Source: Tubulanus polymorphus
Taxonomy: Eukaryota > Animalia > Nemertea
NCBI RefSeq assembly: GCF_964204645.1
Contig: NC_134026.1
Coordinates: forward strand, 16,774,150 to 16,838,149
Length of the DNA: 64,000 bases
Direction of reading: 5' to 3'
Part shown: piece after piece, positions 1 through 42,760 of the stretch
How the letters are laid out: each line of letters opens with the position of its first letter
Numbering within the stretch: the stretch's first letter is position 1
Notes under the pieces: generated by a model
The model's input: the letters and a program-made list of their open reading frames with translations, nothing else
Told to the model about the DNA's origin: nothing
Databases searched by the model: none
Translations under genes and position numbers: made by a program

Positions 1-580
1 TTTGTTCTGATTCAATATCACAGTGTGGGTGCCGTATGGCACCATCTTCTGATTTACTTTTATCTTTACATACTATAGGTTTAATGTTAGAAAATGTTAT
101 AACTCCAGTAGAAATCAATGTCATTTTTCCTCCTAATTGGAATGAAGCATATCCAACCCATTTTTGTAATTCAGTCATAACTAAGTAGTCATTTTTTAAA
201 TCAACATATAATTTATTTTCATCATCACTTGGTATAATCCGTTTACATAATTTTGAATAACATTTTATAATGCCATCACTTATAGAGTCATTTATTCTAG
301 TTAATCTTGCTTCTTCATAAATCTTAAAATATTTTATTTCTTTATCTGGTTTCATAGAGTCTAATTCTTGAAAAGTTATTATTTTCCCCAAGAAATCCTT
401 AGATTTCCCGCCGGCAATTAGTAATTCAAGATAGTGCTTACAATATAAGTAGTATTCATAATCAATATTACAATCAATATTATTTTCCATTTTGGTTGGA
501 ATATCCTTATTATCACTAATGCCCAAATCATCTAATGTTTTTTCAATATCGGTATTATTCTTACTCGATTTCTTTGACAT
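1..580 (-). CDS. Hypothetical viral protein, open to the window edge (absent from the ORF track)
   Basis: ATG at 580 in TTTTTTCTCTAATATAAATG context. Manual translation MSKKSSKNNTDIEKTLDDLG...LELLIAGGKSKDFLGKIITFQELDSM...GAIRHPHCDIESEQ has no stop for 193 codons. Confidence 0.7.
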   Translation of the reverse strand, partial: MSKKSSKNNTDIEKTLDDLGISDNKDIPTKMENNIDCNIDYEYYLYCKHYLELLIAGGKSKDFLGKIITFQELDSMKPDKEIKYFKIYEEARLTRINDSISDGIIKCYSKLCKRIIPSDDENKLYVDLKNDYLVMTELQKWVGYASFQLGGKMTLISTGVITFSNIKPIVCKDKSKSEDGAIRHPHCDIESEQ

Positions 581-1717: not shown

Positions 1718-2372
1718 TTAAGATTCAACATGTTTTTCATTCTGCGTTGAATTCCATAATTCAACAAATTTCTTTGCTTTATCCAGTTGATCTAAATATA
1801 ATCTCATATCAAGTGTGTTCCCTTTCCTTATATTTTCCTTCTTTTCGAGAGTTCTTAAATTTCTCCAATTCCAAATTAGTTTTTTATTATAATCATCACT
1901 CATGTCAAATTTAGAAATCGGCAACACGTGATCAATATGAAACTATTCACCATAATTATCTATATTCATTTTATCATCGAATTGATATATTATCCATGAT
2001 TCGAGTAATTCATCTGTACAACCCAACAAATTAGATAGTTTTTCTGAATGCGTTTCTTTGTTGAATAATTGTGTTAATCTAGACCTTAAACATTGTTTCA
2101 TTTTAAAATTAAGATCTGTTTTATATCTTCCTCTCATATATTCTGTCATATAATCATTTTAATGTTCTCTATTATCTGCTCGATATTGTTTAGTATATAG
2201 TTTAATACAAGTTTTTGCAGCAATATTGAAAACCATCTTTGCTAATCTTACGCTTACTAAATTCTGTTAGAGCTAATTTATCTAATTCACATTTAGAACA
2301 TTTCTTGTAGTATATATTTATAACACCAGTGTTATTTGTAATATTGATAGTTTGTGATTGTTCTGGCTCCAT
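1718..2372 (-). pseudogene. HNH endonuclease of the type common in giant viruses, with N-terminal CxxC pairs
   Basis: Joined frames read MEPEQ...KKCSKCE...KDGFQYCCKTC...NFKMKQCLRSRL...LLGCT...QFDDKMNIDNYGE*FHIDHVLPISKFD...NWRNLRTLEKKENIRKG. One frameshift and two in-frame stops. Confidence 0.8.
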
Positions 2373-2425: not shown

Positions 2426-5400
2426 TTAACACGCTAAAATCCTTTTTAAAATCTCTTTTGTTTCTTCTCTTTTCAATTTTAAATATTCATCTAAATTGCA
2501 ACCATACGCGACTGTATGAATTCCGTCATCTAAAATATATCTTTTATCATCAAATGGGTTCAAACTAACCTTTTCTATCTCTTCAATAAACATTTCATGA
2601 TCTTCAGGTCTTAAACATCTCATCTTATGTTTTCTAACTTCTTCATTGAATATACAATTGATGTAATCTTTGAAATGAATATTTTTTTCTACTACGCTTT
2701 TGGTAATTCCTTTCAATTTCTTTGATTCATGAGTTTTAGTGAGATTCATGAGTTATACACTTTAGATCTAATTCCTATGAACTCTATCATTTCTTTACCA
2801 CCTAATTCATCCTTAAACTTCCCGGAAACTTTTTTATTATCATTGTTAAACAATTCGTGAGTTTTAGGATAATTACCGAAATCAAAATGATGTTTTAATG
2901 TTTTTAAATCATCAGTTATGTTATTAGTTTTTATCTTTAATATGTAACTGTCAGTATCAAAATAAAAGATTTCTACATGCTTTTCTCCAAAATGTGGTTG
3001 TAATATGTTATAATAGAATTCATACATTAATAACTTTGATATTTCAAAAACTGTAGCTCCAACATAAATTGGTTTATTAAATTTCATAGATGTTCTCCTC
3101 ATTTTAACTGCAGCTAAATTTTCATCAAATATTCTGTTACCAATAAATTTAGGATATGTTTGTAAATGTCTAATTATTTTACCATTACTAACTAACACAA
3201 TATCATTTCTATTTCTAATATTTTCACATGTCTTACCATAGAATGCATTATTCATTAGTTTGAAGAAATCCTTCTCAAAATCAGTTTTAGCTTTAGTCCT
3301 CTGTTTGGTATTAAAATCTTTATATTTTTCTAACCATTTAGATTGAAATTTAGACTAAAATATATCTATGTACTTTTTTTAGAATCATTCCTTGATTCAA
3401 ATAGAATTTTAACATTCTATAATGTACTACATAATTATATTTGTCTTCCTGAGTTACCATTAACTTTTCTGTATGAATATAATTTTCAGGTTTAATTCTT
3501 TTTTGATAATTTGATAATTCTTTATGCGTTACAGTTTTATGTTCTGGACAGTATGCTAGATTTCTAGATTTAAATTTTTTATCTTCAGGATTTTCCAAGT
3601 CTACAACAAAGAAGTAACCAGTAACTGAAACATCTGCAATATCTAGAATTCTTTTCTTCCAATCAAATTTATCATTATTTTCATGTTGTAAAATTTCACT
3701 TATTTCAAATACTCCATAAGGTTGTGGTTCCATCATTGCCCATCCATAAAGATTATTTGCATCTATATATAATAACTTATATCCAGGGTTATCATTTACA
3801 TTGAAATATCTATCGCTTATACACCTGAAACTCCTCCTCTTATAGATTTTTCAAATAATAATAATTGATTTATATTTGTTAACAAATCCATTTTTATATC
3901 TGTAAATTTTAAACCACAATCCCAAGTTAAACCCGGGCTAGAATAACAACGGCAAGGATCAATATTAAAATATTTTACATCTCTAGACCTTTCGAATATA
4001 TCAGTTAATAATAATACATCAGATTTTAAATATAAATCTACTTATTGTCCATGATTTGTTATTCTTAAATGATTCCAAATATTCAATGTTCTATTATATA
4101 CTTCGTCTTTAACATATTCATTTTTTAATTCATCATAGAATTGTTCTTTTAATAATTCAGTTATATTGAAATCATTATGTCATTTATAAAAACTATATGG
4201 TATTGCGCCTTTATATCTCATTAATTGAAAATCATCATTATTTGGATAGTGTTGCTTTAATATTTTTAATTCATCATCAACTAATGATTTTGATAAATTA
4301 TCTAATGAACTACCTAAAAATCTATATGAATCTATAAATCTTAGACACCCAAATTGGAAAGATATATAATTCTCAGATGTTTTAGCTAACATTTTATATT
4401 TATAAGTTGGTATTTTATCTTTTGATCTATATGAATTTAATCTTTCTATTTGATTATTGATTTCTCCTATTTTATGACATAGCTGTTTGATGAATAAATG
4501 AGCATCATACCCTGATAAATTATGAAATATTACTGGAACAAAATTGATTTACTTTGCTTGTAAGTTACAATTCTCATGTGCCGCACCTCTAAACTTTTCA
4601 TTCAAATGATCATGGTCTCTTACTTTTTTATCTTTATAATTAAATAGTTTTTCACAATAATAACATTTATCATCAAACTCAAATTCTTCTTTATCTTCTT
4701 CTGTCATTATAATTTCTTTATTTGTATCTAATACTTTACTAAATTTGATTTCATACTCGATTAATAAGTCACAAAAATGATTGATAACATTTTCATTTCT
4801 GTAATGATAATATTCACTTTCAATTAGTTCTGGATAATCAGATTTTATATATAACCCGAAAGCTGCAGCTGATTGATGAATCTTTTCAATAGTATTTGTT
4901 ATTAGAGGATCTGAATAATCAATTATATCAGAATTTAATTTCTTTCTTCTATAATATATTTCTTTTCTATCTTGATCAGTTAATTCTTTATTTAATGATT
5001 CAAAATCTCCATATATAACAAATGGTACTTTATTCATGTAATCATATTTTTTAATTCTAATACTTTATCCTTTTCATTTGGTAAAACTATTTTACAATAA
5101 TCATGATTTTCACATAATTGTTTATGATTTAATAATGCACTTTCAGTTCTGAATTTAGTTATACATTTTCTACATAGATATATTTTATTATCAAAATCAT
5201 TTTCTGATTTGAAAAATAAATCAATACGTTTAATCCACATATAATGATTCTCATAATATAGTATATCTATAACATCATTTGAATCATAATCTTTTGATAA
5301 GTATAGAGGTTCTAATGTATAATGTTTAATATTATTACCTTTCGTTTTTGGTAATTTGATTAAATCGAATACATTTATTTTTAGATTATTATCTCTTTCT

Positions 5401-6492
5401 ATTTTTGGAATATTTTTAATTCTAACTGGATAATTATCTATCTTATAATTATTTTCAAATTATTTATAATTTGTTAATCTAAAACTATGTTGTTTATAAT
5501 CTTCAACTGGGTGTAAGCAACTAATAATTGACCATAGAAAACATTTATCATCAGAATTTTGTACATTTATAACAGCATTAGTTTTAAATGGTAATTTGAT
5601 ATAACTTGATCCATTAATATTATCATCTTTATAATATGATAAATTATTTTCATCAATTGGTTTTGATTTAGTTAACTAATTATATTTTGTGTTATAAACA
5701 TGTAAAATCATAAATATTATTTCATCAAAAATTAAACCAGACCCTTCAAAATATTTCTCTTCTATTTTACTTTTTATTTCATTATAACATTTATCGAATT
5801 TATCATCTATATGTTGTTTTGAAATAATATGTTGTGAATGAGAATTTATATTATATATTGTTTTATGTTCAGATTTTATAAACTTTACTTTAGAAGATAT
5901 ACTAATTTTAGGGTATTCAACATCTGTAATTATCTTTATAATATTTTTCATATTTTCTAAATGTTTTTTATTTTCTTCTAATGTTTTTCCTTTATGAAAT
6001 TTAAACTCAATAGCAGCTGGACCAATATCACTTTTAAATGCTTCAGTTATCTCAACTTCTTTTTTATTATCTAATGAATTAATATAATTTCTAACATCTT
6101 CCATGTATGGCCTTTTATTGTTTAATTTATCTTTTATTCTTTTAATTGTCTTCGGTTTCTTATCATTATCTTTTTCAAAATAATCCTCACCTAAAATATC
6201 ATTATTCATATTTCTAATATGACTTTTAGATTTTAAATGTTCTTTATAATATCTTTTATCACTGAATGATTGATTACATGTATCACATTTGTATGTTTCT
6301 TTTTCATTCTTTAATTCTGTATGTTTCTTTTTCATTCTTTAATTCATCTAATTTAGTTTCTAATATATCATCTTTATATTCTAACTTTAATTTATTTTCT
6401 AAATGCGTTTTAGTTTTATTGTGCTTTGCTTTTTGGGATTTATCTATATTGATTTTACATGCCGGACAGTAGTACTTCTTATTTGCTTCCAT
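2426..6492 (-). pseudogene. polB: Protein-primed family B DNA polymerase (pPolB) with N-terminal Zn fingers, a vOTU-like domain and an endonuclease-VII-like insert
   Basis: Motifs occur in order across frames: CPAC/CDTC fingers; INVQNSDDKCFLWS...ENHY; ExoI YGDFES; RDHDHLNEKFRGAAHENCN; ExoII FHNLSGYD; ExoIII YLKSDV; SIRGG; motif A YIDANNLYGWAM; motif B KLMNNAFYGKT; motif C YFDTDS; C-terminal KLKGI and DDKRY. Confidence 0.95.
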
Positions 6493-6522: not shown

Positions 6523-6950
6523 TTTTCAAATAATACATATTAGATACCTTAATACTTAAAAACCCCTTTTTCTAAAATATATATAACTTATTTTAATTTT
6601 TCAACTAAGTTTGAAATAATAAAGGTTATTGTAGATTAATACATATTAAATACATAAATAATTACATATGTATTAGATACGTATTAGATATGTATTAGAT
6701 ACGTATTAGATACATAAATACTTAAAACCTCGTTTTTTAAAATAAATATTATTTATTCAATTTTCAACCAATTTATTTTTGTTTTTTCAACTAAGTTTGA
6801 AAATAATAAAGGTTAATTATTATTACTGAGGTTTCAATATAAATTTAAAAAATTATAATTTAAGGTATTTTCAAATAATATAGTATTAGATACATAAATA
6901 CTTAAAAATCCTTTTTTATTAACTATTATTTTATACAATTTTCAACCAAT
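6523..6950. repeat. AT-rich intergenic repeat block upstream of pPolB
   Basis: Four tandem 11-mers GTATTAGATAY (~6670-6713). About three longer imperfect units contain TATTAGATAC..AATACTTAAAA. TTTTTCAACTAAGTTTGAAA occurs twice. Confidence 0.8.
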
Positions 6951-7340: not shown

Positions 7341-8363
7341 ATTTGAAACAATATTTAATTGCGCGTCAGATATAATATAAATGTGTATTTTAAAATTTTT
7401 GATTCCTTTTTTCTATCATTCTCATTCCTTGACAAAATATTTTATTTGCTATTCCTTCGATAGTTATTTCTACTTTTGTTATTTCAGGATTATAATAATT
7501 ATCGACCTGTATTGCGCCATTAGAATATGTTGCAATGGTAAAAAATATTAATATACCTTTAATAGATCTTCTTTGGAAGTTAATATTCTCATTAATAATT
7601 TCATCACTTGCATTAATAGTTACAGTTTTTTAAATTTATCAATATAATCATATAATAATGAAAATCCTTGATTGTATTGAGTTTGAATTATACTTGAAAT
7701 ATTTTCATCAGTTACTGTGTCATATTCTAAACATATATTCGATAATTTATAACCCATATCTTTAACAACGCTAGATAATACAATTTCATTAACAGGAGCA
7801 AATGTTATTTCAAATATAACATCTTCTTGAATTGCGTATTTATATAAAGGTGCATTATTATTTATCAATTCAAAATCTAATGGAATTTTATGTTTGCTTC
7901 CATAAATCATTTTGATCAAATTATCTGCGGTACGAGTTACTATTGCGTCATTCGCTCCTGATCTTAATTTATTTTGGTTTTCTGATTGGATGCCTTGAAA
8001 TATCATATTATTTCTATTTTCTTTTGTTAACCATAAATCTTTGTAATGCATAAATAAATTATAATCATCTAATGAGAAAACTGTTTCTGGCCCAATCTTT
8101 ATAGTTAATTTTTTAATCAAATATCTTCCAACATTATCAACAACATAATTATTATTATTACCCGTTACATTTATACCAGCTGATGAATAAATACTATTTG
8201 GAACATAAAAAGTATTTTGTGTTAATCTAGGGATTCTAACATATAAAGTTTCATCAGGATTAATATAAGAAGGGTTATGAGTAATTATATGATGAGATCT
8301 TTCTGCTTTAATAGCATTAGATATTCTATGATTCTTAGATGGATTTATATAACTCCCACTCAT
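7341..8363 (-). pseudogene. Double jelly-roll major capsid protein, frameshifted and internally deleted
   Basis: 247-aa beta-rich ORF (ITHNPSYINPDETLYVRIPRL...DNVGRYLIKKLTIKIG...YKDLWL...KIPLDFEL...LSNICLEYD). It continues in other frames as RSIKGILIFF...YNPEITKVEITIEG...QGM and IISDAQLNI. The pattern matches MCPs of invertebrate Polinton-like elements as I recall them. Confidence 0.8.
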
Positions 8364-10139
8364 TAATTCAACAAAAAAATTAATTATATATTTTTTATCA
8401 TATTCACTAACCCAAAAATAATAGCACTTACAACTGTAATTAAAAATAAAATAATATGTTCAGCAGCAAAGTTAAGAATATTCCCTGCAGATTTCAATGT
8501 AAAACCAACAATTGATGCAATAGCTCCGGGTAAAGCTGCAGCAGATTTTTTAGATAGTTCCCATAAACATTTTGCTAATTTTTTTAAACCATCCTTAACT
8601 TTATCTTCTATAGAATTATTATCATTTGGGGGTTTATCCGGTTTATTAGGATTTGGTGTAGATTTCAATGAATTTGATATAGCTAAACCAATTGTTGTGA
8701 ATACCATAGTTACAGCTGTTAGAATTGAAAGAATTGTTATACCTTCAAACATAAATAATAATTTTATTCTGTCTTTCAATGATATTTCAGAATTTGGTTT
8801 TATTATTAACTTTTTAACAACAACTTTTAATCTATTAATACAATAATCATATGATTTTAATAATAATTTCATTTTTCTCTCTGAAATTCTATGTTATATT
8901 CTAAATCATCAATTTCTTTTTCTAAATATGCATTTCTTTTTTTAAATTCAATTTCTTCAATAACTTTAAATTATCTATCTAATTTTAATTGTTCTAATTC
9001 TTTTCTGGTGTCAAATAATTTATTTTCTACAGGTTTTATTTTATTATATCTAATATTTTTTTCGCGCGCAATTTTATCGGCTTCATTTCGTATACTTATT
9101 ATTTCTTTCAGAAAACATACTTAAAGCTTCTATTTCTTGATCTGTTGCATCAATTAATCCATTCGGTAAAAGTTTTTCAGTTTGAACTTCGTTTGATTTA
9201 AGTTTACTAGTTATGGAAATTATATTCTGTTCAGAAGTTGTTTCTGTTTGTTGTTTCTTTTAATTCTAGATGGTTCTAAATTACTCAAAGTTGATTCTGC
9301 TAATATTTAGGGTTTTCTGTTTCTTCACAGAAAACCCTATTGAAATTCGCGTGATTATTATTTTTTTTTCCCTTTTCCACACAGTTTTTGTTAAAAGTGT
9401 AAAGGCTTCCTTACCTTACCGCTGTCGCCGATACAATCCGTATGATATCCTTCAGCTCACTTCAATCTCCAGATAGTGCATGGGGATTTTGATAAATCCA
9501 CGTTATAAAGGCACTGTCGAGCCGTAAACATCGGAAATTTGGCTCCGTTCAATTAGTAGCCATGTTGTGTTTTCTTTCCGAAATTTCTCTCTTCTTTTCG
9601 AGGAAGAGCTATCGAATAATTCCCTCTCTTCTCCACAATCAATTTCAAAGTCAATTTTATGAATTTATTGCTCAGCGGGTCCGAGTCCAAGAGTTTACGA
9701 GTCCGGCGTTCGCGTGTCTGACAGGTTTACGGGCATTTGTTTGTTACCTTTTTAATATTTTTGATTTCTTGTTATTCCGGTTATTTTATTTAAGTATATT
9801 GCTGATCAGTTCATGTAACCAAAAGCGTCAATAAACAGATTTTGAATTGATCAAGTTTGAATGAAGGTCGTTGAGTCGCGGAGGGCTACTAGAATTACGT
9901 TCGTCTCAGAGAGAAAACAAACGACAGAAAAGTACCAGGTGATTATCGATAGCCTACTACGGTACACACAGTTGACAAACAGTGTTAGGCCTGTGCCGGT
10001 TGGTGCGTCCTGGGAATAAATATACTGGTTGGTCAGTTGGTTCGGTTGTGAAGTGTGGAAGCTAAGAAAGCCTACCGGTATTTATTTGTTATAGGCCTTT
10101 TGTATAGTACCCAATACAATTTAAAGTACGTAGTACGAA

Positions 10140-10650: not shown

Positions 10651-11731
10651 TTTTAGCCCACTTGGGCGATTGCGTTCACTTTTCGTCCATCGTCCGTCAG
10701 TCCGTCGGTAGACGGAATCCAGTTATTTTGGGAAGACGCTTCAATGTAATGTCTTGATATTTGTGTTACACGTGTATCTACCCTAGACACATCTTCAGCC
10801 CAAAAACTGGCCCTGTCAGAATCAAGATGGCCGACTGGCAGCCATTGTTGTTCACCAAAATCAACACTTTTTACACATTTTTGAACTTTTTGAGGGCAAT
10901 TTTGAAGACGCTTCGATCAATTACCTTGATCTTTTGGATGTATGTGAATCCCCCAGGGCCCATCAGCATAACAAAAGTTGGGTCGATCGGACTCAAGATG
11001 ACTGTCCTATGACCTTTTTAGTGCCCAAAAATGTCAATTTTGGCCAGAATTCTGAGTGCTGTAGCTCCCTACTGGTTTGCCATTTCTCATTGCAATTTGT
11101 GATGGGTATTCTATGGGTATTTTATACCTGAGACAGGTATTTTGATCAGCCAATTATGACGCAATTGGCGGCCATCTTGGTGTCATAAGCACTCATTCGT
11201 AGGCGGGAAAAAGTTTTTCCACGTTATATTGTTGATATTTAAGCATATTTTCTTACCACAATCAATTGGAAAGTTGTAGCTCATGACATGGTCTATGATT
11301 GTGGTGAGTTTGAAGGTCATTGTTTTTGTATATGGCCACCAGGGGGCGTTGAATAATACAATATCTTAGTATTTCTATATTATATTCGTATCAATGCATA
11401 TTTTGTAACCACAATCAACTGCAAAGTTGTAGCTCATGACATCTATGATTGTGTCAAGTTTTAAGGCCAATAGTTATTCTATATGGTCACCACGGGGTGT
11501 TGAATAGAAGAATAACTTAGTATTTCCTTATTATATTGGTACCTAGGCATATTTTGTTACCATGATCTATTACAAAGTTATAGTTCGTGACATGTTCTAT
11601 AATTGTGGTGAGTTTCAAGGTCAGTGGGTTTTGAATATGGTCACCAGGGGGCGTTGAATATTGAAATTGTTAGATTGTTGAGCATTCGGAACCACTTCCC
11701 AAGTGGGCATGGTGTCCCTGGACCCCTAGTT
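10651..11731 (+). mobile_element. HINE family 2, copy A, nested in the larger Helentron
   Basis: SubTIRs GCCCACTTGGG / CCCAAGTGGGC, GTCC-type microsatellite, internal ~155-bp tandem repeats, 3' hairpin GTCC-CT-GGAC followed by CTAGTT. Homologous to copies at 18.2, 18.6 and 61.1 kb. Confidence 0.9.
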
Positions 11732-13534
11732 AAAACAATACAGTGAAGTATTCACACGCAGAAAGGCCAATTGATTTGAGCCATGTGATTAAATTTGGCC
11801 AGGCTTTCTCTGACCTGCTGACATTAATAGTCAAACCTAGATCCAAAACGTTCATATGGTCACGGCTTGTATACCAGAAATCATTGTAGGCCTGTACATT
11901 TTGCTGTTCGTAGGTTTGGTATACCGATTTCTCCATTCTTGACTGATAAATGTACGGTACAGCTGTACGCATTAGGCCTATACAATTGTTCCAATGGGAT
12001 TAGGGCCTATTGATTGGGCTTATTATTTCCTGCTTTAGAATACCGAAATAAGCCTAACGTTCATTTAAATATCCAACATCGGTGAAATTTTGATTACTGT
12101 ATACATGTACTGTAGGTTTTTCATGTTATATGAATATTTTGCAGTTCAAATGGGTATGATGCTGATTCCAATGTCAAACGCATGAAGTAAGATGGACAGT
12201 CAACACCAAGATATCTCTCTTCGACCGATGTTGCACCATAGATCTGATTCTTTCAACTCAAGCAAAGTGATTCAACACGATCGACATAACACTGGAATAG
12301 GTTTGCAGTAACAAAACGGTTCATTTCATTTAGTCCTATGTACTTTTTTTTTAGCCAATTTGAATTTGATTGTAATTGAAACTCTGGAACAAAAGACAAG
12401 TTCAAAAACACAAGTTATGCCTGATTCTCATGTTCAAATTTAATTCAAATTTATTTTATTACATCATATTTACAAAACATATCATTGGTTCATACAGTAA
12501 TAAAAATAAGGACAGAACAAATATTATTACATAATTTTCAAAAAGGCAATGAATTTCTATAACTAAATGAACATTATTTTTCTAATAACTCAGATCAAGA
12601 GTGACTCTCCCGTTTATTAGGAAACACACGCAACTAGTGGAATAGGTTTGATTTACACACATGTTGCAGGTATCAATTGTTTATCCCTATAGAATTTGTA
12701 ATCCATAAAAGCCAAAATCAACATCAGCCGGAAACCCAGACCAAATCAATTCATAATCTATTGATTGAATCTACACTACAGTATGTGTATTTATTCAAAT
12801 ATTTCATTAAAACATTAACTTCTTCTATCTATTCTAAATCAATCGTAATACGTTCTTATCTGTTAGTTCACTCAATCTATCGACTCAGCAGGTGCTTAAG
12901 ATGAGTTCTCAATAGGAAAGATCCATTTTTAAGCATGGTGATAATACGGTATCATGATGTTTGAATGCCAAAATAAATGCCTGGTCAAATAAATTAATAC
13001 TTGTTGATTGTACGTCCGCGTATGTTCGGTTTCAAAGCTGAATCATATTTGACGTTAACACAGTGTTTGCATATTAGGTTCGAATCTGTCAATGCATTTT
13101 ATTTTATGTATCGGTATTTCAATTTACTACAATTCCCATCATTCTGAATGGCTTTGCAGAAAACCCGTCATCGCTGCTTGGCAGCTATATTTTGTTTTGA
13201 TTTTTTATAAGTGATATTAATATAATAATCATCTTTCAAATGATAATAATATTCACCATCTAAAGATTTTAATTCTGTTACTAAAAGTCTGGCCCCTCTA
13301 TCATTTATATTATACCCAGATCTTTCAATTATAGGTTTGAATTTATAAATATATTCCTTATATTCTAAATTTTGTTTTACTAAATCTGGATTTTCATTTT
13401 CAGGATTTATTCTCGATTTAGTTCTTCTATCAAATTCATCTGTTGATGGGCCTTTAGAACCACCTTTATTATTATTTCCCATGTTGTCCATTTCATATTT
13501 TTCTCCACCTTCTGCCATTTACATAATAGAAAAA

Positions 13535-15961: not shown

Positions 15962-16717
15962 TTACTCTCTACATCTTATAATTAATTCATAAATTATAGG
16001 AAAGTTATTCAAATCAATTAAATATCCATTATGATTTCTTACTTCTAATCTAAAATTATCAAATTGAGGAATACAAGGTTTAAAATCACATTCTGTTAAA
16101 TCATAATTTATTTGAGATCCAAATTGTTTAACATTTTTAAGCGGTAAAATATTTAGTACACTAGAACTATAAATTGTTTCTTTAGTTGCTTCGAAAGTTT
16201 TTGTAGGATCGATTAAATTGCAATAAATATAAAAGTGTGTAAAAGGTATTATATTTGAGATGCCTTCTGCGTTTCCAGTAACTGTAAGCGGTTTAATTCC
16301 TAACATTTTAGCCATTGGTTTGTTTACCGTAAATTTATGTTGTTCATTAGATATCTTTATTCTTATTTTATTAGTACTATCAATTTTATTAAATTAAATT
16401 TAAAATACAGAAGTGCCCCCGATTTTCAACCGAGCTGTTCTATTAATTTCCTGCGCTTATGATTCTAAATTATATAATCCTGGTTTTAAAAATAGATGAA
16501 ACCATTTATCTTTATTTCTCATATAAATCATAAACCCTCTATTTTCAAAAGTTTTATCCGATATATTATAAAAAGAATTACATAAACTTACATTTACTAA
16601 TCTTAAATCAACACAATTCTTAAATTCTCTATCTAATTGTACTAGTAAATTATGTGATTTATAATTTGTAAGTCTTCTTGAATCAACAAATATTCTGTAT
16701 TCTTTTAATTCTACCAT
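15962..16717 (-). pseudogene. Minor capsid protein (single jelly-roll, penton-like)
   Basis: N-terminus RIFVDSR...LVNVSLCNSFYNIS...LKPGLYN; C-terminus MLGI...FYIYCNLI...VLNILPL...FRLEVRNHNGYLIDLNNFPIIYELII. Total ~250 codons. Confidence 0.8.
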
Positions 16718-16731
16718 TTATTTTACATATT

Positions 16732-17073
16732 TTATTCGAAATCTATTTCATGGTGCCCTTTTTCATTCTTACCTTTGTATATGAAATAGAAATCTCCAGA
16801 ACATAATTCTTCTGAATCTTCACTTGATACTCTTTGAAATCTATCTGGTAAATATGTTCTGAATTTATATGTATTTCCTTTTAATCCTTCATATTCTAAG
16901 TGGATAACTAATTTACTACCATATTTGTTAGTAACTGTATCAATATTTGTAATTAGATATTTCTTATGAATTGTTAATTCTGTTAACTTTTTGAATTTAT
17001 AATCTACAGATTTTACATTTGTAGTATCTTTTATTCTATCTAAGAATTCACTGTTTACTTGTTTACTCTCCAT
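16732..17073 (-). CDS. Small viral protein, possible OB-fold ssDNA-binding protein
   Basis: Intact 113-aa ORF with FKKLTEL...KYLI...NKYG.KLVIHL...TYLPDRF. It is the first gene after the terminus. The fold assignment is inference only. Confidence 0.55.
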   Translation of the reverse strand: MESKQVNSEFLDRIKDTTNVKSVDYKFKKLTELTIHKKYLITNIDTVTNKYGSKLVIHLEYEGLKGNTYKFRTYLPDRFQRVSSEDSEELCSGDFYFIYKGKNEKGHHEIDFE

Positions 17074-17132: not shown

Positions 17133-17284
17133 AGTAATAGGGGTTTAGTTGTTCTAGATTAAAGGTTGAAAGGTTGAGTGAGTAAAAAATGAAAAATAAA
17201 TTCGAGTGTGCGAGAATTTATTTTTCATTTTTTATGACCTCGACCTTTCGACCTTTGATCTAGAACAACTAAACCCCTATTACT
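17133..17284. repeat. Terminal imperfect palindrome of the viral element (71-bp arms, 10-nt loop)
   Basis: 17133-17203 pairs with 17214-17284, with three T:G pairs and one 4-nt bubble. Loop GAGTGTGCGA. Confidence 0.95.
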
Positions 17285-17285
17285 T

Positions 17286-18035
17286 CTGTCACACCTGCTC
17301 TCCGTGCGACGTTTTGGTCCGCAATTTCGTTAATAATCGGTTTACCTACCTTTATTGCGCATCAATTTGTTCAGTGAGGAATCTGCATTCAGGAATAAAC
17401 AACAATTTTTACTCAAGTTGTTTTTGTTTTCATTTATGAGCGATAGTTTACTCAGCATCAGACTGGGTGATTGTGAGGATAACCCGTATATAAATTTTAT
17501 ACGGGTTATCCTCACAATCACCCAGTCCCTCGATTCCAGCCACTCAATATAAGGGTAATCCACGCGAACACCCGTACTCCGGGAATTCGTGTGATAACGA
17601 CCAATCGATGCTCAGACGGCCTCGGATTGGAAAATCTTAAGGTCCCGTGAGGCAGTCGGAGCCTACCATAACAATACGTGTACCTTGTTTACATCAATTT
17701 GTTCAATTAATCTATATCAAACATCAAAACTAGTTGTAAGCGAATCGACGCATGGACCCTACATGTTCATTTATTTTTTCCAGGTCTTTTACAATCAGAA
17801 CGGAACCGATTACGAGTTTGAACGTGGTTGTAGACGGGATTTATGTCGGGTGTATAGAAACGAGATCTGCCACACAGTTGGTCATCTAAAACAATGCAAG
17901 AAATGTTGCCGCTCGACCAACTGCAACTCTTATCCACTTTTCCTTGCAAAAAGTGGCAGCTCTGTGGTAACAGGTTGTACGATTATTCTAATCGCATTTG
18001 TACATGTAACATTCTCAATGATTCTCTTGTTGTGA
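17286..18035 (+). CDS. Host Ly6/uPAR (three-finger, quiver-like) GPI-anchored protein; last two exons 17286-17373 and 17784-18035
   Basis: CHTCSPC...YCASICS|gtgagg phase-0 donor matches ttttttccag|VFYN...RGC...C...C...CKKCCRSTNCN, followed by a hydrophobic tail. AATAAA at ~18070. Twelve Cys in total. Confidence 0.8.
17461..17527. repeat. Intronic palindrome with perfect 30-bp arms
   Basis: GACTGGGTGATTGTGAGGATAACCCGTATA-N7-TATACGGGTTATCCTCACAATCACCCAGTC. Confidence 0.9.
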
Positions 18036-18235: not shown

Positions 18236-20987
18236 TTTGAGCCCACGTGGGACTTAAGTCCCAGCGGGCTATTGCGTTCAAATTTCGTCCGACCGTTCGT
18301 CCGTCCACCCGTAGACGGAATCCAGTTATTTTGGGAAGTTTTAAAGACGCTTCTGCTGTCTTGATATTTGGGTTACGCGTGTATCTTCCCAAAAAAACAT
18401 CTTCAGCCCAAAAACTGGCCCTTTCAGAATCACGATGGCTGATTGGCAGCCATTGTTGTTCGCAAAAATTCGCACTTTTTACATATTTTCTAAGTTTTTG
18501 AGGGAAATTTTGAAGACTTATCTAAAACCTTAATCGTTCAGATATATTTGAATCATAAGATAACTAGGGGTCCAGGGACACCATGCCCACTTGGGAAATG
18601 GTTTCAAATGCTCAACAATCTAACAATTTCAATATCCAACGCCCCCTGGTGACCATTTACAAAAACCAACGACCTTGAAACTCACCAAAATCATAGAACA
18701 TGTCAGCAGCTACGATTTTGTAATTGATTGTGATAGCAAAATATGCCTCGTTACCAATTTAATATGGAAATACTAAGTCATTCTACTATTCAACGCCCCC
18801 TGGTGACCATATTCAAAACCCAATGACCTCGAAACTCACCACAATCATAGAACATGTCATGAACTACAACTTTGCAATTGATCATGGTAACAAAATATGC
18901 CTAGGTACCAATATAATAAGGAAATACTAAGTTATTCTACTATTCAACGCCCCCTGGTGACCATATAGAAAAACTAATGTCCTTAAAACTCGCAACAATC
19001 ATAGATGATGTCATGAGCTACAACTTTGCAATTGATTGTGGTTACAAAATATGCATAGGTACGAATATAATAAAGAAATGCTAAGATATTTTATTATTCA
19101 ACGCCCCCTGGTGGCCATATACGAAATCCAATTACCTTGAAACTCACCACAATCATAGAACACGTTATGAGCTACAACTTTCTAATTGATTGTGGTAGCA
19201 AAATACGCTTAGGTATCAATATAATGTGGAAAAACTTTTTCCCACTTACGAATGAGTACTGGTGACACCAAGATGGCCGCCAATTGCGTCATAATTGGCT
19301 GATGAAAAATACCTGTCTGAGGTATAAAACATCCCTTTCCAAAGAATACCCATCACAAATTGCAATGAGAAATGGTAAACCAGTAGGAAGCTACAGGACT
19401 CAGAATTCGGGCAAAAATTAACATTTTTGGGCACTAAAAAGGTCATAGGACGGCCATCTTGAGTCCGATCGACCCAATTTTTGTTTCGTTGATGGGCCCT
19501 GGGGGGATTCATATATATCCGAAAGATCAAGGTAATTGATCGAAGCGTCTTCAAAATTTCCCTCAAAAAGTTCAAAAATGTGTAAAAAGTGCTGATTTTG
19601 GCGAACAACAATGGCTGCCAGTCAGCCATCTTGATTCTGACAGGGCCAGTTTTTGGGCTGAAGATGTGTCTAGGGTAGATACACGTGTAACCTAAATATC
19701 AAGACGTTACCTTGAAGCGTCTTCAAAACTTCCCAAAATAACTGGATTCCGTTTTCGGACGGACGAACGGACGGACGGACGACGGACGAAAAGTGAACGC
19801 AATAGCCCGCTGTGACTAAAGTCCCAAGTGGGCTAAAAACCCGCTATTTACAAACTAAAAGAAATCTAAAATCGAGAATTTATTAATTGAAACAATCTAA
19901 AATATAAATTAAAAGAAATCTAAAATCGTTTTATATATAAATATTTGAATCCCTCAAGGGTTCGCCAGCATGAGAAAAATTGGGGCGATCGGACTCAAGA
20001 TGGCCGTCCTTTGACCTTTTTTGCACCAAGAATGTCAATTTTGGTCCGAATTCTGAGACCTGTAGCTTGCAACTGGTTTACTCTTTTTGATGGGTATTCT
20101 TTACAAAGGAATCTATAATACCCGAGACAGGTATTTTTGATCAGCCATTTATCACGGAATTGGCGGCCATCTTGGTGTCATCAGCACTCATTCCTAGGTG
20201 AAAAAATAGTTTTTCCCACATTATATTGATACCTAATTATATTTTGTTACCACAGTCCATTGGTAATCTTGTTGTCATCATGAATATTCTTTCCTAGGTG
20301 GAAAAAGTTTTCCGCATTATATTGATACCTAAGCATATTTTGTTACCACAATAAATTAAAGTTGTAGCACTATGATTGTGGTGAGTTTCAAGGTCAGTGG
20401 TTTCTGTATATGGCCACCAGGGGGCCAGTGGTTTCTGTATATGGCCACCAGGGGGCATGAATAATACAACTTAGTATTTCTATATTATATTCATACATAG
20501 TTGTTACCACAATTAATTTCAAAGTTGTAGCTCATGACATCGTCTATGATTGTGATGACTATAAGGTCATTAGTTCCATATGGTCACCAGTGGGCGTTAA
20601 ATTGTAGAATAACTTAGTATTTCCTTCATATATTTGTACCTAGGCATAGGCCTATTATCTTACCATGATCAATTGCTAAGTTGTAGCTAATGACATGTTC
20701 TGTTAGTGTGGTGAGTTTCAATGTCATTGGGTTTTGCATATGGTCACCAGGAGGCGTTGAATAGTACAATTACTTTGTATTTTCAAATCATATTGGTACC
20801 TAGGCATATTTTGTTATCACAATCTATTAGAAAATCGTAGCTGCTGGCATGTTGTATGATTGTGGTGAGTTTCAAGGTCGTTGGTTCTTTTATATCGTCA
20901 ATAGAGGGCGTTGAATATTGAAATTGTTAGATCGTTGAGCATTTGAAACCACTTCCCAAGTGGACATGGTGTCCCTGTACCCGTAGT
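18236..20987 (+). mobile_element. HINE family 2, copy B (older, interrupted at 18555-19940)
   Basis: 5' part 18236-18554 and 3' part 19941-20987 are collinear with copy A. Confidence 0.85.
18562..19838 (-). mobile_element. HINE family 2, copy C (full length, inverted inside copy B)
   Basis: Both ends are intact, with (GGAC)n tract and ~155-bp internal repeats. Nearly identical to copy D. Confidence 0.9.
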
Positions 20988-21089
20988 TTCATTCGTTTTT
21001 TTCCTGCGTTTTAAACTAAAATGAGTTCTCAGAAAGGTCGAACTGAAAGCCCACATATGCAGGAAGACTCACAGCGAAACAAAAGCTTT

Positions 21090-22199: not shown

Positions 22200-23250
22200 C
22201 TTGTTTCTCAACCTTCTCTACGCACGCTCGAATTTATTTTCATTTTTCTACTCACTCGCCCTCTCAACCTTTGTCTTGAAACAAGATACATACAATTACT
22301 CTAATAATTTCATATTTTAAAAGAGTGAGTAAAGTGTTAGCATAATAATCTAGTTAAATAAGATATATTTCGAATAATGTAAAATCAATTTTTAAACATA
22401 AAAAGAGGGAGTGAAGTAATTCATATTTTAACATTGAATAATTGTATGAGTTAGATTTATTTCAATAAAAGTTTTTTTATTAAAATGAAGAAAGAAGAAG
22501 AAGAACCTAAATCAAAATCGACGAAATCAATGAAACCAATAAATTATTTTCACAGTTTAACATTAAGAATCTCAGCAACAAATTTAGTGTATGAGAGACA
22601 ATATAAAATTGATAATATTACTGTAATTAATCAAATATTATCAAATGAAACATATTTAATTACTGAACTAATTGATACCTTAGATAATGGCGCTAAAAAT
22701 CCTGAAATATTTAATACCGTCTTAAATTATAAAGGAACTTTAGATGAAAACATAATAAATATTCTTCGAACTCCTTTTAATGAAAGAGGTAGTGATTTTA
22801 TACCTTATACATACAGCTTAATCTTTTTTCAATATATATTTAATATTCTTTTCATATTCGATATGTTTAATTGTTTGATAATGTTTTGATTTATGTGATC
22901 TTAAATATTTACCTCCACAATAACAATACACTTTCTCATTAGGATTGAACTTTTTAAATTCATCATCTAAATTACATTGAATTGAATTCCAATATCTTTA
23001 TAAGAATTATTATTAACTGATTCACATTGAATTCCAATATTTGATGAATCTTCATTATAGATAATTTGTTTATTATCAAAATAGAAATAATATAATTGTC
23101 TTTTTTCAATTCATAAGTTATCAAATCATTGTAACTTTTAGAAAGTATTAAATCACTATCTCTTTCATTAAAAGGAGTTCGAAGAATATTTATTATGTTT
23201 TCATCTAAAGTTCCTTTATAATTTAAAGCTGTATTAAATATTTTAGGATT
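22200..23250. mobile_element. Rearranged terminal fragment of a related Polinton-like virus
   Basis: Loop plus inner arm of the terminal hairpin (22220-22302), AT-rich subterminal region, TTAAAATG-started ORF 22485-22889, and an inverted paralogous copy of part of that ORF. Confidence 0.75.
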
Positions 23251-23415
23251 ATTGCTGCCTGTGTCTTGCATAATGTTTGTATAAAAACCGCTGATCAACT
23301 TGAAGATTTCATCGAACGAGTAGAAGAGGAAGAAATTAACCCAAACCCACCTGCAGTCATGAATGATCCAAATGGCATTGCTCTTAGGGAGAGAATAGTG
23401 CAACTGTTTGCTTGA
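23250..23415 (+). pseudogene. PIF/Harbinger transposase C-terminal remnant
   Basis: IAACVLHNVCIK...acidic tract...GIALRERIVQLFA*. Convergent with a Myb/SANT gene. Confidence 0.8.
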
Positions 23416-24315
23416 ACTCTATTTTGTTTTTTAAACACATTAAGTGGTGAATGAAATTAATTAAGAAATTTTAATTTCAAGAATTAATAAATCCTTATGT
23501 TGGATACTGTTTAGGCTAAAAAAATTATAACTTGTTTCTCCGCAGCGGTCGGGTCACTTTTGTGAACTCTAATAAAATTTGTTCATTTCTACAACTGCCG
23601 GGTCTGTGATTGTTAGCCTAATCATAATTCTAAAAAAGTAATGTACAGGGTAGAAAGACGGCTAGCTGGGTCAACTTTTAAGCTCAGCAGACGGAGAAAC
23701 AAGGTATCATTTTTAGCCTTAGTGTGAAATGGTTGATTAAGGTAACTTTAGAACTTTCATGCAAAGTGAGGCTTGAGATATTTCAACATTGAATCGACGA
23801 AGCAGGCTCTTATTAAAATACATCACCTATGATATTTCACATTATTGTAATGTATTTATTACAAAACTTATAAACTGACCTATAAATTTTAAAAAACCCT
23901 CAGGCAGAGGTACTTAACATTTGAATAAAAAGAAAAACTTAAATTTTCAGCATTGAAGGTGCTTCTTCATTTCAACTAAACTTAAATAAAACTAAAAAAA
24001 GCCCGTCCACTGAACAAAGTAGAAACCACTGCACACGTACCCCTTAATACACTAGGAGCTGAAATGTATGTATTACATATCTTACTAAATTACAAATTTA
24101 AGAATATATGGCTTAGAGGTACAGTCGACTTCAAAACTTTAAAGACTATAATACGAAAAACATTAAACATTGATGCTTTCTTTAACCTGAAACTTGAAAT
24201 TAAACTAAACGATGAAACATAACTGAAATCCAGATAAACATGTATTTAACTTTTTTGTAACTTTTTAAGCAATTACAGTGTCATCAGAACATTTTAAATC
24301 GTTTAATATCAAAAA

Positions 24316-25717
24316 CTATTTTTCAAGTGACTTTTCGAACAAGTCCAGGAAACGATCCATGCGTGCCATTTTGCTGTCATGCATCTCCTTATTATTCTGA
24401 AGCATTTTAGCGCTGAGATCTTTGAATTCATCCAACGTTTTTAGCTGGGAATCCTTTATAAATAATTTCTGTTTTTTGGCTTCGATCCCTCTGCCTCACT
24501 CAATACACTTGTCTCGCATTCTTCAGGTTCGTCTACCTCTGTTAATTCAGAAGTATCCATGGAATAAATTACCAACTCGGGCTTCGTCGCTGCTCTTAAG
24601 TTTTATATCTACATCGAAATGATCCATGTATTTGATATCTGCACGCTCACTACCAGTTTTGTTGTTTTGATCCACAGTTTTTTTGGTACTTTTTCTTCAA
24701 GTTTGTCCACTTATTTATTATTTGTATAATAGTGACACTTATATTTTGTTCCGCAAGTGACTGCTGCACCTCCTTCCATAATGTACTGTGGCTCTTTTTG
24801 CCACAGGTAAAACGCTTTTCCATTGGAAGTCGAATTGCCAAAAGGCACTTTGTTTCATTGTCACTCGAGAAATGAAGGCCTCCTTGCGATCCTGATGGCC
24901 CTGGGATATCCTGATCTTGTTTTTCAGCTGGTTGACTAACGGTATTTGTTCTTTGACTAACAGTAACATCGGTTGACACCTTACGTTCTGTTTCACATTG
25001 ATGGGCTTTGGATGATGGTACAAGATATCTTAACATTTTGGTTTGTTTTTTCTGGATCTGAAATCGAAAAAAAATGTTTATTGATAGTGGAATGCTTTTA
25101 TATTTATATTAATGATTCGTTCGAGAATTGAATTAAATAATTAATAGTCGGTTTCACAGCTTTTATTACACTACAGTATGTAATCACCTATGTAACAACA
25201 GCTGTAAGACAAACCTTATTCATGGCAAAACATACATTCAAAGCTCATCATGGATCAGGCGTGTATGTAGATTTTAAGGGTCCTCGATCATTATGGACAT
25301 GAAAGATTTGAGGAAACTTACCAGTTAACGATGTCACATATTTTTGCACTGTTTCTGTCACTTCAAGTTGGTGAGTCTGACCATCCAGATCAAATCGAAT
25401 CGTAACTCTACAAAAAATGCAGTAAAATTAATAAAATGTCACCATGCCATAGACCTATAGTCAGATTATGCAGATAGTCTAATGCGTGCTTCTCTCCAAC
25501 AGTCGATTGCGAAGTCCTCTTGTGATAGCCCTTTAGCTTTTCATTTAATAAAATATCAGAAGTTGCGCATGTTTTATGTACCCTGCAATACTTGCAAGAG
25601 GTTTTAGGAGTAGTTTCATTGAGCTTAAGCTGAGATTACCAGCGAAAAGGAATACAATTCAGGTAGTTTTCGGCAATTTTTCAGCTAAAAATTCATAACT
25701 TACTTTTCTGCCGCCAT
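24316..25717 (-). pseudogene. Harbinger-associated Myb/SANT (trihelix) DNA-binding protein, three exons
   Basis: Exons 25717-25704, 25407-25322 and 25057-24316 with GTAAGT donors and YAG acceptors. ETKCLLAIR...LWKEV...IINKWTNLKKKY plus a C-terminal coiled coil. Frameshifted. Confidence 0.8.
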
Positions 25718-38890: not shown

Positions 38891-41800
38891 GCTAAGGTCC
38901 AGAGGACATTACAAGCAACTACAACTAAAGTTGAAATGACAGTGACATTTGACGGTGATCAAAATTAATAAATGCACGTAAACTGATAATTACACTAAAG
39001 GATGATAATATTGATAGTAATGATAGTAGCAATGAGTTGTAACAGTGATAATAATGATAAATAATAGTAAATGATAATGATAATTATAATTATTATAATG
39101 ATAATGATGATTATCATCATCAGTTAGAGATTCTTTGGTTTCTAGAAATGAATTTAGCGACAAGACAGATTACTGTCGAGTTTAAATCATAGTTATAAAT
39201 GGAATTTCCAAAAAAATAGGAATTCGCATTTATTCAACATATTTAATCTATTGAAATACGGAAGTAGTTGCAGGGAATCAAGCGAAGTGAGGAGGTTAAA
39301 AAAGTCATGTTGGAGGGAAGGTTCTCGACACTGAAGAAGGAAATGTGTTGTCGATTGGATTTGGTTGCAGTAGGGGCAGTCAGGATCACTTACATCAACG
39401 AAGTTATGTGAATAGAAATGAGATCTCAGGAAGAGGTCTACACGCAGACGATTTAAGCAGATTTCTTCATTTCGATTAAGGTTTTTTATTATGGTTGAAC
39501 TAAGAACATTTGAGTGGTATTTATTAAAGCAGGTTTTAGTTTTGAAAAGGGAAAATGAATCGCAGTTCTGAAGCTCAGGTGTAAGATTATTTCATTGTTC
39601 CATAAGTTGAACAATGGGTGATCGCCTCATAAATGAACAAATAAGATGCTGGGATTCTAAAAGGTCGCTGCGTTCTAAGGGCACGAGGTCGGTTGCTGGC
39701 CACGTTATGGAAATGAAAATTGAATTTACATATGGCGGGACAAACCTGTTTTTTACTTTAAATATATACAGCAGTTGACACTCTTTACGCCTGGCGGCTA
39801 GAGTTTGCCAGTTCAAAATTTGCAGGACCTTATAAGTGTTCGAGTCGTGGATACAACCGGAGACAAGGATCGCAGCTCTGTAGTGAATCCTCTCCACTTT
39901 GTTTAGATTAGAAGTAGAAACTCCCTGGTGGATGATATCACAGTACTCAAAGTGAGGAGCTATAAAAGATTTATAGATTAATTCTAGATGACAAGATCTA
40001 AGTTTTCGGCTTAGCAATTTCAGTGGATTTAGGAGTTTCTGGGTTTTAGTAACCAGGTGTACGATGTGTTCATGAAAATTAAGGTTTTGATCAAGAATAA
40101 GGCCTAGGTGTTTGTGGGATTGTTTTGTAGGGAGTATTTCCCCGTTGAAGGTAAGATTAGTGTAGTTTGCAGTACCACGTTTCGTAAAGTTGATATTGCA
40201 ACATTTGGAAGGTTTGAATGGGAGCCGCCAGATTTTGGCCCAAGATTCTATCTCATTAAGGTCAGTTTGTAGGATTAAACTGTTCAAATTTGGGTTTTGA
40301 GGATTGACTGGCATATAGATAGACGTATCGTCGGCATAAATAAAGGTATCACTGTTAAAACTGTCTGGTAAGTCATTTATATCCCATACAGACCAGGAGC
40401 CAAACGTTGGTCCAATTACCGTTATTACACCTTGGGGTACTATTTGAATTGTGGCCTTGAAAAAATTTCTTCAACCTACTTTCTACCAAAAATTGTACAG
40501 CAGCATGACCAACATCGTGGGGAATTTCAGAATCTCCCTAGTGTTGCATAAACACAATCGATGACATCACAATATCGTATAAAATGCGATTGCTATAAAC
40601 AGGGCCTAATTTCTAAAATTGTACATAGGGCTGGACTCGGGATCCATAGAGGATATATAAAAGGAATAACAGGGGCCCTAAAATAGATCCCTGGGGAACA
40701 GAGATATTAACGTATCCGATGGGGGATAAGTTCAGAGAAGATTCCATTCACTTTCACTTGGATTCGGCGATTAGATAGGTAGGATGAGATAAGATCATGT
40801 ATTTTGCCGTTAATTCCATATGCTTTTAGCTTGTGAAGTAATAATTTATGAGGAAGTGTATCAAAGGCAGCTGAGATGTCAAGAAAAGCCGCCCGAACTG
40901 GTTTGAGAAAATTAGATTATTAATAATAACATGATTGTATATATTTTGATAAATCAATCTTTCAAACAGTGTTGAAATGGTGCAGAGAAGAGAAATTGGT
41001 CGATAATTTTTAGGGTCATCACGAGCGTCCTTTTTATGAATTACTGAAACTTGAGCGATTTTCCATATATCGGGAAAATTACTGCGATCGGCTAAAGTAT
41101 TAAAGACACGTGCTAGCACTGGTGAAATGGCATTAGCAGACAATTTCAACATACTATTAGTTATTCTGTCATGACCGATTTGTTGACATCAAGTTCTAGT
41201 ATAAGTTTTCTAATGGAATCAGTGGCTATATGTGGCATGAATATATCGTGCGGGCTTATGTTTGCAAAGGGGAGCAAGGAATCAAAGTAATAGGGAAATG
41301 TGGCTTTCATACCGAAGGTCGAAAGGACGAGCTCGTAAAAAATGAAAATAACAATAATTTCCAGTTGAATTAGTCGCGCACACTCCTAATTCAACTGGAA
41401 ATTATTGTTATTTTCATTTTTTACTCACTCACACTTTCAACCTTTGATATGAAAGCCACATTTCCCTATTACTCTTAAAATATTCATTTACATGGATAAA
41501 ATATATATGAATAACATATAAAAGTAATTAGGAAATGGCGTTTTCAGATCAGAGGTCGGAGGTCGAGCTCTTATAGAATAGATATATAGATATATTTTAA
41601 ACATATTTCAATATTTATATTTGTATGAGTTAGATTGTTAAACATTAAAAGTGTTAGTAAAGTGTGATTGAAATAATTCATATTTAAATCATTGAATATT
41701 TATATTTATATGCGTTAAATTCTTATTTTATGTTTAAAAGTAACGAGTAATTAACGAGTTGATGAAAATATCAATTTTAATAAAAAAATTACTTATAAAT

Positions 41801-42760
41801 ATGAATGAACAGATACTACAGTTCAAAGATATCGATTTAAATGAATTGCTTTGCTTATTAGAGAATTTACAATATTGGTTTGGGATTTGTATCGGTAATA
41901 GTATGAAGCGTAGCCAGTAGTTTTAAAGCGCCTATATAGCCTATTTCGGGTGTTCATGGCCTGTTTGACATAATCTTTCATCCACGGTTGGTCATTAGGT
42001 TTTATGTGCACTGATCTATGCGGTACATGAGAGGAGTAAATAGCAAACAGCGAATTTGTAAATGATTCAGCCAAACTGTTTGTGTCCAAAGTTTGAAAAA
42101 TAGGATTCCAATCAAATTGTTCAATAGATTCGTTGAGGCGAGCAATATCGCAAGCATTATAGTTCCAGACTATTTTCTGCTCGGTAGCGGTTTCGAGTTT
42201 TGAAACGCCGCATTGATCCAAAAAGTACTATGATCGGTATTACCGATAGTTGTGGTCACTGAGCATTCTTTAATAAGACTCGGAGAATCGGTAAAAAGTA
42301 GATCAATACAGCAGCTGGTGCTAGCTGTAACGTGGGTTGGAGAATGTACTATTTGGGAGAAAAAAAGATCACTGGCGATCTGGTACAGTTCGCGGCCAGG
42401 TGTATCTGTAACATCGCTGTTGCACCATAGTGAATTTTTTGCATTGAAATTGCCTATAATATGTATACAATTATTCAGTGGATTTATCTTTTTCTGTTCG
42501 TCACTAGCTTCGTCACTTCAATAGCTTTCATCGAATCAAAGAATCGCTTTCGTTCATTCAGAGGTTGTGAGGGGGATCTATAAGTGATACACAACAACGT
42601 CGTTTTAAACTTTTCTTTGATATTTAACCATATCGAGTGGTTACACTTAGAAATCAGATCATTTCTAACGTTACAGATTAACGAGTCGTGATAATATAAA
42701 ATTAATCCTCGATTATTTGGCGATCGTCTCCAACGACAAGGTATCGTTCTCCGGTGACCA
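38890..42760 (-). mobile_element. CR1/L2-group LINE, 5' truncated, nested in the BEL element
   Basis: APE (TYRSPS, IGNFNA, CIDL, DH) and RT (NYRPISLL, VPQGSILGPLLFLLYINDL, YADD, HKHLG). ATT-rich tail at ~39000-39120. A 270-bp insertion sits at 40383-40652. Confidence 0.9.
41285..41845 (+). mobile_element. Isolated terminus of a related Polinton-like virus (188-bp fold-back plus subterminal region)
   Basis: Arms 41286-41373 and 41386-41473, loop TCGCGCACACTC. Same AGTAATAGGG end and internal motifs as 17133-17284. Confidence 0.9.

Follow-up and report, generated by a model that had tools for sequence, protein, structure and literature searches.

A mismatched terminal fold-back with covarying stems at the end of a multi-copy Polinton in Tubulanus polymorphus

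The element, its gene array and its relatives

The window analyzed here is a 64,000-nucleotide stretch of the genome of the nemertean Tubulanus polymorphus (contig NC_134026.1), and it holds three copies of a long fold-back, two of them complete and one partial (Table 1). A decayed, AT-rich array of minus-strand genes extends leftward from copy 1; it is broken by other repeats and runs off the window. The model of its first ORF (pLDDT 77) had a best Z of 6.0 with many OB/SSB rows, and the atlas lead was a phi29-type SSB (score 0.84); on this modeled likeness, which is weak, the product is possibly an OB-fold ssDNA-binding protein. The second ORF had no Pfam match; its product is likely a minor capsid protein. 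For the major capsid protein, the intact homolog P0002 (76% identical) was predicted to adopt a double jelly roll fold (pLDDT 87.8), with Foldseek matches to iridovirus (E = 5e-16) and PBCV-1 (E = 2e-15) capsid proteins. The pieces of the polymerase gene matched Pfam DNA_pol_B_2 and Endonuclease_7 below the cut-off in both cases, and the intact polymerases of the metagenome loci L020 and L024 matched DNA_pol_B_2 (PF03175) above it. The L003 ORF that resembles the stand-alone nuclease gene showed a weak Pfam HNH match (E = 0.0055, below the cut-off).

Table 1. Positions of the genes and fold-back features within the window
Feature	Position	Strand	Details and basis
Conserved Polinton ORF at left window edge	74..580	-	61-72% to L002, L003 and L006 ORFs
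Stand-alone HNH-like nuclease gene, in pieces	1718..2158	-	38% to L003 ORF 5568-6080
Broken pPolB gene	2426..6338	-	tblastn E 4e-144 and 5e-155 to intact L020/L024 polymerases
Major capsid protein gene, two pieces	7390..8366	-	50 homologs
Broken homolog of L002 ORF2 (second ORF)	15962..16717	-	tblastn 41% over 253 aa, E 8e-59
First ORF, small beta-barrel (modeled)	16732..17073	-	starts 60 bp in from the hairpin; homologous to L002's first ORF
Copy 1 fold-back	17133..17284		71-bp arms, 10-nt loop
Copy 1 inner arm	17133..17203	+	folding
Copy 1 inner-arm mismatch zone	17159-17182		opposite 17235-17258
Copy 1 tandem G.A/A.G	17180-17181 with 17236-17237	+	3'-ending strand
Copy 1 loop	17204..17213	-	10 nt; folding
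Copy 1 outer arm	17214..17284	-	true element terminus 5'-AGTAATAG at 17284; folding, read breaks
Copy 3, loop and inner arm	22221..~22300	+	outer arm missing
Copy 3 AT-rich interior remnant	22301..23266	+	ORF rearranged by 128-bp inverted duplication
Copy 2 fold-back end	41286..41473	+	88-bp arms; stems unlike copy 1
Copy 2 arms	41286-41373 and 41386-41473		12-nt loop
Copy 2 AT-rich interior remnant	41474..41850	+	stops inside presumed LINE-like ORF
Third, degenerate direct copy of outer-arm unit	41518-41579		in copy 2 interior

Overall, eight consecutive ORFs of the metagenome contig L002, through the capsid gene, were matched in order by the array. L002 encodes an rve integrase (E = 1.5e-10) with a chromodomain and an A32 ATPase (E = 4.6e-11). 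Neither had a match within the window, where the element runs off the left edge, and the two genes may lie beyond that edge or have been lost. The Pfam scan of 27 window ORF pieces gave no protease match. Judged by the double jelly roll capsid, the polymerase and the 5'-AG end, with an integrase seen only in the relative L002, the element is best called a Polinton/Maverick. A first reading, made from the sequence without searches, had spoken of a Polinton-like virus; since the nearest relative carries both the rve integrase and the A32 ATPase, Polinton proper fits better. Known Maverick ends likewise start with AG in the available text of PMC8097293.

We also looked for the fold-back elsewhere. 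In none of the 43 metagenome loci did a long fold-back lie 400 nt or less from a contig end, but most of these loci are fragments that stop short of a terminus; L002 ends 124 nt short of its first ORF and is thus uninformative on this point. The informative negatives are L024, whose left end is present, and probably L020. L024 is a distant relative with the same polymerase type, and its intact left end lacks a fold-back, which indicates that the structure is dispensable in the clade; it also has an Endonuclease_7-like insert (Pfam E = 7e-4, below the cut-off). Among viral contigs, capsid queries and the L002 integrase retrieved no relative, and no capsid relative was found in prokaryote genomes. 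In the viral contigs, the inner-arm 20-mer hit one unrelated locus without a long inverted repeat, and none of the 25 stretches that matched the pattern of tip plus outer motif carried this fold-back.

Two other observations concern these relatives. L020, distant but complete, has a subterminal stem of 24 bp located some 130 nt in from the left end (L020:134-192), and an integrase ORF is not apparent in its ORF list. Three close relatives have internal imperfect palindromes where their ATPase gene ends (3' side; L002:9082-9359, L006:3183-3255 and L003:3684-3875), which are possible terminators or resolution sites.

Geometry and covariation of the fold-back

The full-length comparison covers two complete copies and one partial copy, with arm positions numbered from the tip towards the loop. 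Both complete copies fold far better than shuffled sequence: the z-scores for the two strands were -17.7 and -18.1 in copy 1 and -19.8 and -20.4 in copy 2, with 0/200 shuffles as good in any of the four folds. Arm positions 1-10 are identical everywhere. Positions 11-26 are fully paired in each copy (16/16), with only 5 of the 16 letters common to copies 1 and 2; at the other 11 the change is matched in both arms. From position 51 to the end of the arm the pairing is again perfect within each copy, and copy 2, which carries a 17-bp extension in both arms, still retains the loop and the mismatch zone. Every mismatch falls into positions 27-50 (7/7 in copy 1, 9/9 in copy 2; Fisher p = 3e-4 and 2e-6, for a zone picked post hoc). 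In this zone the inner arms of the two copies are alike at 21/24 positions and the outer arms at 19/24, and the two arms of a single copy agree at 17/24 and 15/24. Mismatches at 35, 43, 47, 48 and 49 are common to copies 1 and 2. All three window copies have the same orientation (p = 0.25; three copies only, with short reads over an inverted repeat).

Most of this geometry had been described in the sequence-only reading. Its second copy with different yet paired stems and a 17-bp paired extension was borne out, and the arm motifs and loop orientation common to both copies are as it quoted them. The 71-bp-arm terminal hairpin stands too, but the end moves from 17285 to 17284, where the reads break, the extra A being flank. 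The third partial copy exists (22221-~22300) and consists of loop and inner arm only.

The terminus was examined in raw reads from a run labeled as the same species, of which about 12% was read. The body of the element had a mean depth of 557x versus 4-14x at unique bins, which corresponds to about 60 body copies (range 41-128). Right behind 17284, 508 reads exit the alignment with a flank agreement of 0.35 and the depth drops from 447x to 12x. Such breaks into unlike flanks mark a dispersed element terminus: position 17284 is the dispersed terminus of a multi-copy Polinton, starting 5'-AG, and the end of copy 2 is the same base. Depth was 838x at 17140-49 and 621x on the inner side at 17120-29, and 12x outside the tip at 17290-99.

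The reads also extend the comparison of stems to the family. At 17257 and 17261, respectively, 777 and 742 reads exit into other outer stems, which share the same closing tip; a longer stem resembling that of copy 2 appears in 385 and 477 reads. A complementary variant stood at the mirror position for 4 of the 5 listed outer-stem variant columns, and a single-base deletion was mirrored at 17155 and 17262. Six inner-arm variant columns (positions 11-19) had no mirror row among the 40 of 88 variant rows listed, because the outer arms concerned were probably clipped; the covariation was scored by column, unphased, on those 40 of 88 rows. Hairpin covariation is real, in that stems differ between copies yet pair perfectly within each, and what is new here is family-wide covariation around a fixed, strand-biased mismatch zone. 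Another 419 reads carry the outer arm with different sequence in front of it in place of loop and inner arm (agreement 0.74). Some ends therefore lack the fold-back, and these reads may stem from the far end of the element or from a subfamily without it. A second mirrored indel (17191/17217) was dropped, as its two positions are not mirror images.

Not all mismatches are equally constant. The pairing letter was present in 72% of reads at position 43, in 38% at position 50 and in 34% at position 28, and position 47 was mostly in the G.T form (90% of reads). Positions 35, 48 and 49 were variant-free among the 40 of 88 variant rows listed. Across the family, only positions 35 and 47-49 look fixed, so that the conserved asymmetric bubbles first proposed hold for 35, 48 and 49 in those rows but not for 43, 50 and 28, which are often paired in reads.

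The mismatches also differ between strands. On the 3'-ending strand, G.T accounts for 7 of the 8 mismatch positions of transition type (p = 0.035), and a tandem G.A/A.G stands at 48-49 in copies 1 and 2; the opposite strand has C.A and T.C at the same positions. The 3'-ending strand has the better predicted fold in both copies (-61.9 versus -55.3 and -77.5 versus -73.6 kcal/mol). A pyrimidine-GA-purine context favors the sheared form of G.A pairs. The pyrimidine-GA start of this context is present in the inner and outer arms of copies 1 and 2, and the outer arm of copy 1 ends in C, not in a purine. Tandem GA-AG mismatches have very large stacking, according to the available text of PMC8163305. 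Deamination of one exposed strand could be an alternative source of the G.T bias, and it would imply a single-stranded phase. Random CpG decay, which the sequence-only reading had named as a refuting outcome, is rejected: the mismatches cluster in 27-50, reappear at the same sites and stay on their own arm, although one-strand deamination may have shaped them.

Copies 2 and 3 are truncated, and the far end of copy 1 falls outside the window. In blastn, the interior of copy 2 matched 41281-41343 (75% over 63 nt) and the Polinton spacer 6490-6526 (84% over 37 nt). The interior of copy 3 had a read depth of 140-380x versus about 9x at unique bins; its ORF had no match in the atlas or Pfam and did not significantly resemble the ORF of copy 1 (E = 1.0). 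The host control for these comparisons was unmatched for AT content, which makes the match of both interiors to the Polinton body weak.

A possible role for the folded end

We put at about even the chance that the terminal fold-back is a working replication end, at which a duplex origin is rebuilt locally for the protein-primed polymerase. When pPolB displaces a strand, the freed 3' end would pair with the inner arm, and it is on such displaced single strands that the fold would form. The refolded 3' end would restore a short duplex origin locally, with no need of the far end, and terminal protein would initiate synthesis there, as it does in other Polintons. Arm may be copied onto arm when the folded end is trimmed and re-extended, or repaired, and this would produce the covariation. 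The mismatch zone would survive such copying through the G.T and tandem sheared G.A pairs of the 3'-ending strand, marking the two arms as distinct protein sites and serving as a structural or protein signal. The integrase would presumably insert the open, extended duplex end. One accidental fold-back would remove the mismatches, and arms drifting independently would lose their pairing; neither yields stems renewed on both sides of a fixed mismatch zone, so a fold that forms in the life cycle is the simplest account of the data; its refolding into a duplex origin would fit the geometry and the strand bias. The SSB-like gene beside the hairpin may also be counted, weakly, for a replication end. 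Against a working end, no free or replicating molecule was seen among the integrated copies and short reads, L024 lacks the fold-back, and positions 28, 43 and 50 are often paired elsewhere in the family. Of the new terminus and replication system first suggested, the real end stands; published terminal palindromes, the recurrence of the nuclease insert in L024 and the ordinary AG tip speak against a wholly new system.

The likeliest competitor is a neutral by-product, in which the doubled end arose through template switching (fold-back copying) on a TIR made of short repeat units and is occasionally recopied, the mismatches being leftover differences between units. It would accommodate the third degenerate outer-arm unit inside copy 2, another local inverted duplication in copy 3, the 419 reads that have the outer arm without a fold-back, and the bare end of L024; accidental annealing is named as an alternative in the available text of a preprint on Halocafeteria elements (10.64898/2026.07.28.741278). 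One fold-back copying event, however, would wipe out all mismatches, and the stems have been renewed on both sides (positions 11-26 and the 17-bp extension) while 35 and 47-49 stay unpaired alike, so we regard a by-product as unlikely. A free-standing fold-back MITE that chances to adjoin viral genes seems highly improbable. The hairpin core does have about 5 times the depth of the subfamily body, and the ORF beside copy 3 has no recognized homolog. Other subfamilies and two ends per element can explain the extra depth, though, and an AT-rich, multi-copy interior lies on the inner side in 3/3 window copies, that of copy 2 matching Polinton spacers (weakly, against an AT-unmatched host control). 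Read depth also continues from the inner arm into the body and collapses beyond the tip, which upholds the earlier view that the hairpins are tied to a Polinton interior.

Another proposal, in line with the sequence-only reading, is a hybrid hairpin replicon, in which the 3' end primes its own synthesis, the endonuclease-VII-like insert of pPolB or the HNH protein nicks the bubble, and resolution runs in one orientation, as it does at the left end of rodent parvoviruses. The predicted folds would place the 3'-OH paired at the stem base, facing the body; the single orientation of 3/3 window copies (p = 0.25) and the two nuclease candidates encoded by the element point the same way. In the accessible parts of the literature, asymmetric bubble resolution is described for MVM and LuIII (PMC1185569), and the Halocafeteria preprint (10.64898/2026.07.28.741278) suggests that hairpins prime replication in protist virophages and a PLV. 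On the other hand, no HUH Rep was found among the window ORFs scanned of this incomplete element, the Endonuclease_7-like insert is present in L024 without a fold-back, and the element has the canonical AG tip. The available text of 10.1101/2024.03.18.585575 interprets inserts of this kind as remnants of homing nucleases or inteins, and the palindromic ends published for Halocafeteria elements (10.64898/2026.07.28.741278) are mostly in elements without pPolB. Taken together, we consider this replicon doubtful. The mismatched fold might instead be a signal for packaging or integrase loading and not an origin, comparable to the vaccinia telomere mismatches in virion maturation, which according to the available text of PMC8956199 act on assembly and not on DNA synthesis; relatives of the element do encode an A32 ATPase and an integrase. 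Packaged or integrated Polinton DNA would, however, be expected to be duplex and free of mismatches unless extruded as a cruciform, and a signal alone leaves the re-copying of the arms unexplained, so that we judge this improbable. Also unlikely is a reading in which a pPolB Polinton lineage has acquired parvovirus-like ends. The sheared G.A/G.T zone of the self-folding terminus would make its arms unequal and steer priming or nicking, by the endonuclease-VII-like domain fused to the polymerase, to one side; if true, such a lineage would link the protein-primed and hairpin-primed modes of replication as a living intermediate among jelly-roll viruses.

The working-end proposal can be set against known systems, described here from the available text of the sources cited. 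Like Polintons/Mavericks with an Alpha-adintovirus-type PolB and OTU domain (PMC8502044, PMC10748475, PMC8097293), the element has a DJR capsid, a PF03175 pPolB with a nuclease insert, a 5'-AG end and many dispersed copies, with an integrase and an A32 ATPase in its nearest relative; unlike theirs, its end is a 150-190-nt imperfect palindrome. In the accessible literature, including the surveys PMC10748475, PMC8502044, PMC11131425 and PMC8097293, we saw no pPolB Polinton described with a mismatched fold-back at its end; the available text of these four animal Polinton surveys does not mention hairpins, nor palindromes where that term was sought. Terminal palindromes are reported for Halocafeteria seosinensis virophages (subtypes 1, 2, 5 and 6) and PLV subtype 4, for which the preprint proposes hairpin priming or accident (10.64898/2026.07.28.741278). 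There, as here, the palindrome lies at the TIR tip and adjoins the host junction. By contrast, in the main text of the preprint those palindromes measure about 52 nt in subtype 5, were found with no more than 4 mismatches and belong mostly to protist elements without pPolB, whereas ours span 152-188 nt, with 7-9 mismatches in a fixed zone, covarying stems and a pPolB.

Viruses with better-known ends offer partial likenesses, again as far as their sources were available. At the left end of rodent protoparvoviruses (MVM, LuIII; PMC1185569) a bubble also makes the fold-back arms unequal, and one orientation is reported; these are ssDNA viruses whose HUH protein NS1 resolves the end, whereas the Polinton is an integrating dsDNA element with pPolB in which no HUH gene was seen. 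Poxvirus flip/flop telomeres (PMC8956199) likewise conserve terminal-hairpin mismatches, with structure kept over sequence, but their closed ends are covalent, exist as two isomers and have the axis of the palindrome at the extremity, whereas here the outer arm ends free at the AG tip. Bidnaviruses (PMC4938981) have a related protein-primed PolB and ends that re-form a duplex (panhandle) origin; their ends have no palindromes and must pair with each other, whereas one end could pair with itself here. The start of Polinton replication and the regeneration of its ends have so far only been modeled, and dozens of copies with several stem types around a fixed mismatch zone amount to a record of natural mutagenesis at the end. 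Should the folded end prove functional, terminal palindromes would extend from protist elements without pPolB to a polymerase-bearing Polinton, which would bear on how hairpin-ended DNA viruses arose from protein-primed ancestors.

Surroundings of the fold-backs

The three copies differ in their neighborhoods. A separate high-copy repeat, 17285-~17630, starts one base beyond the Polinton tip of copy 1 (1936 reads, with unlike left flanks) and contains its own hairpin with 33-bp arms at 17461-17527; we presume it to be Helentron-like. The ORFs that flank copy 2 we read as LINE-like by their motifs. Copy 2 sits within the LINE-like ORF2 on the minus strand (40826-42933), and the remainder of the Polinton was seemingly deleted together with some LINE sequence. 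Copy 3 is broken at the loop, its remnant beginning inside the loop, like a break at a cruciform tip (n = 1). Beside it lies what we assume, by motif, to be a Harbinger-like transposase tail (23255-25108), with a Myb/SANT ORF at 24650-25108 (Pfam E = 2e-12). In 2 reads the loop has turned self-complementary (17195-17237), as if repair had lengthened the stem, which may be a library artefact.

Further repeats occupy the rest of the window. A dispersed, very high-copy repeat (10732-11732, 18562-19839, 20078-20988 and 61110-62244; depth up to 17,000x) has internal 154-bp tandem units, and one of its copies interrupts the Polinton. At 55130-57640 an 836-aa ORF has a weak MULE transposase match (E = 0.0014, below the cut-off). 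A complex tandem array at 47742-52679 is built of an 887-1061-bp higher-order unit of ~200-bp subunits, the units being 93-100% identical.
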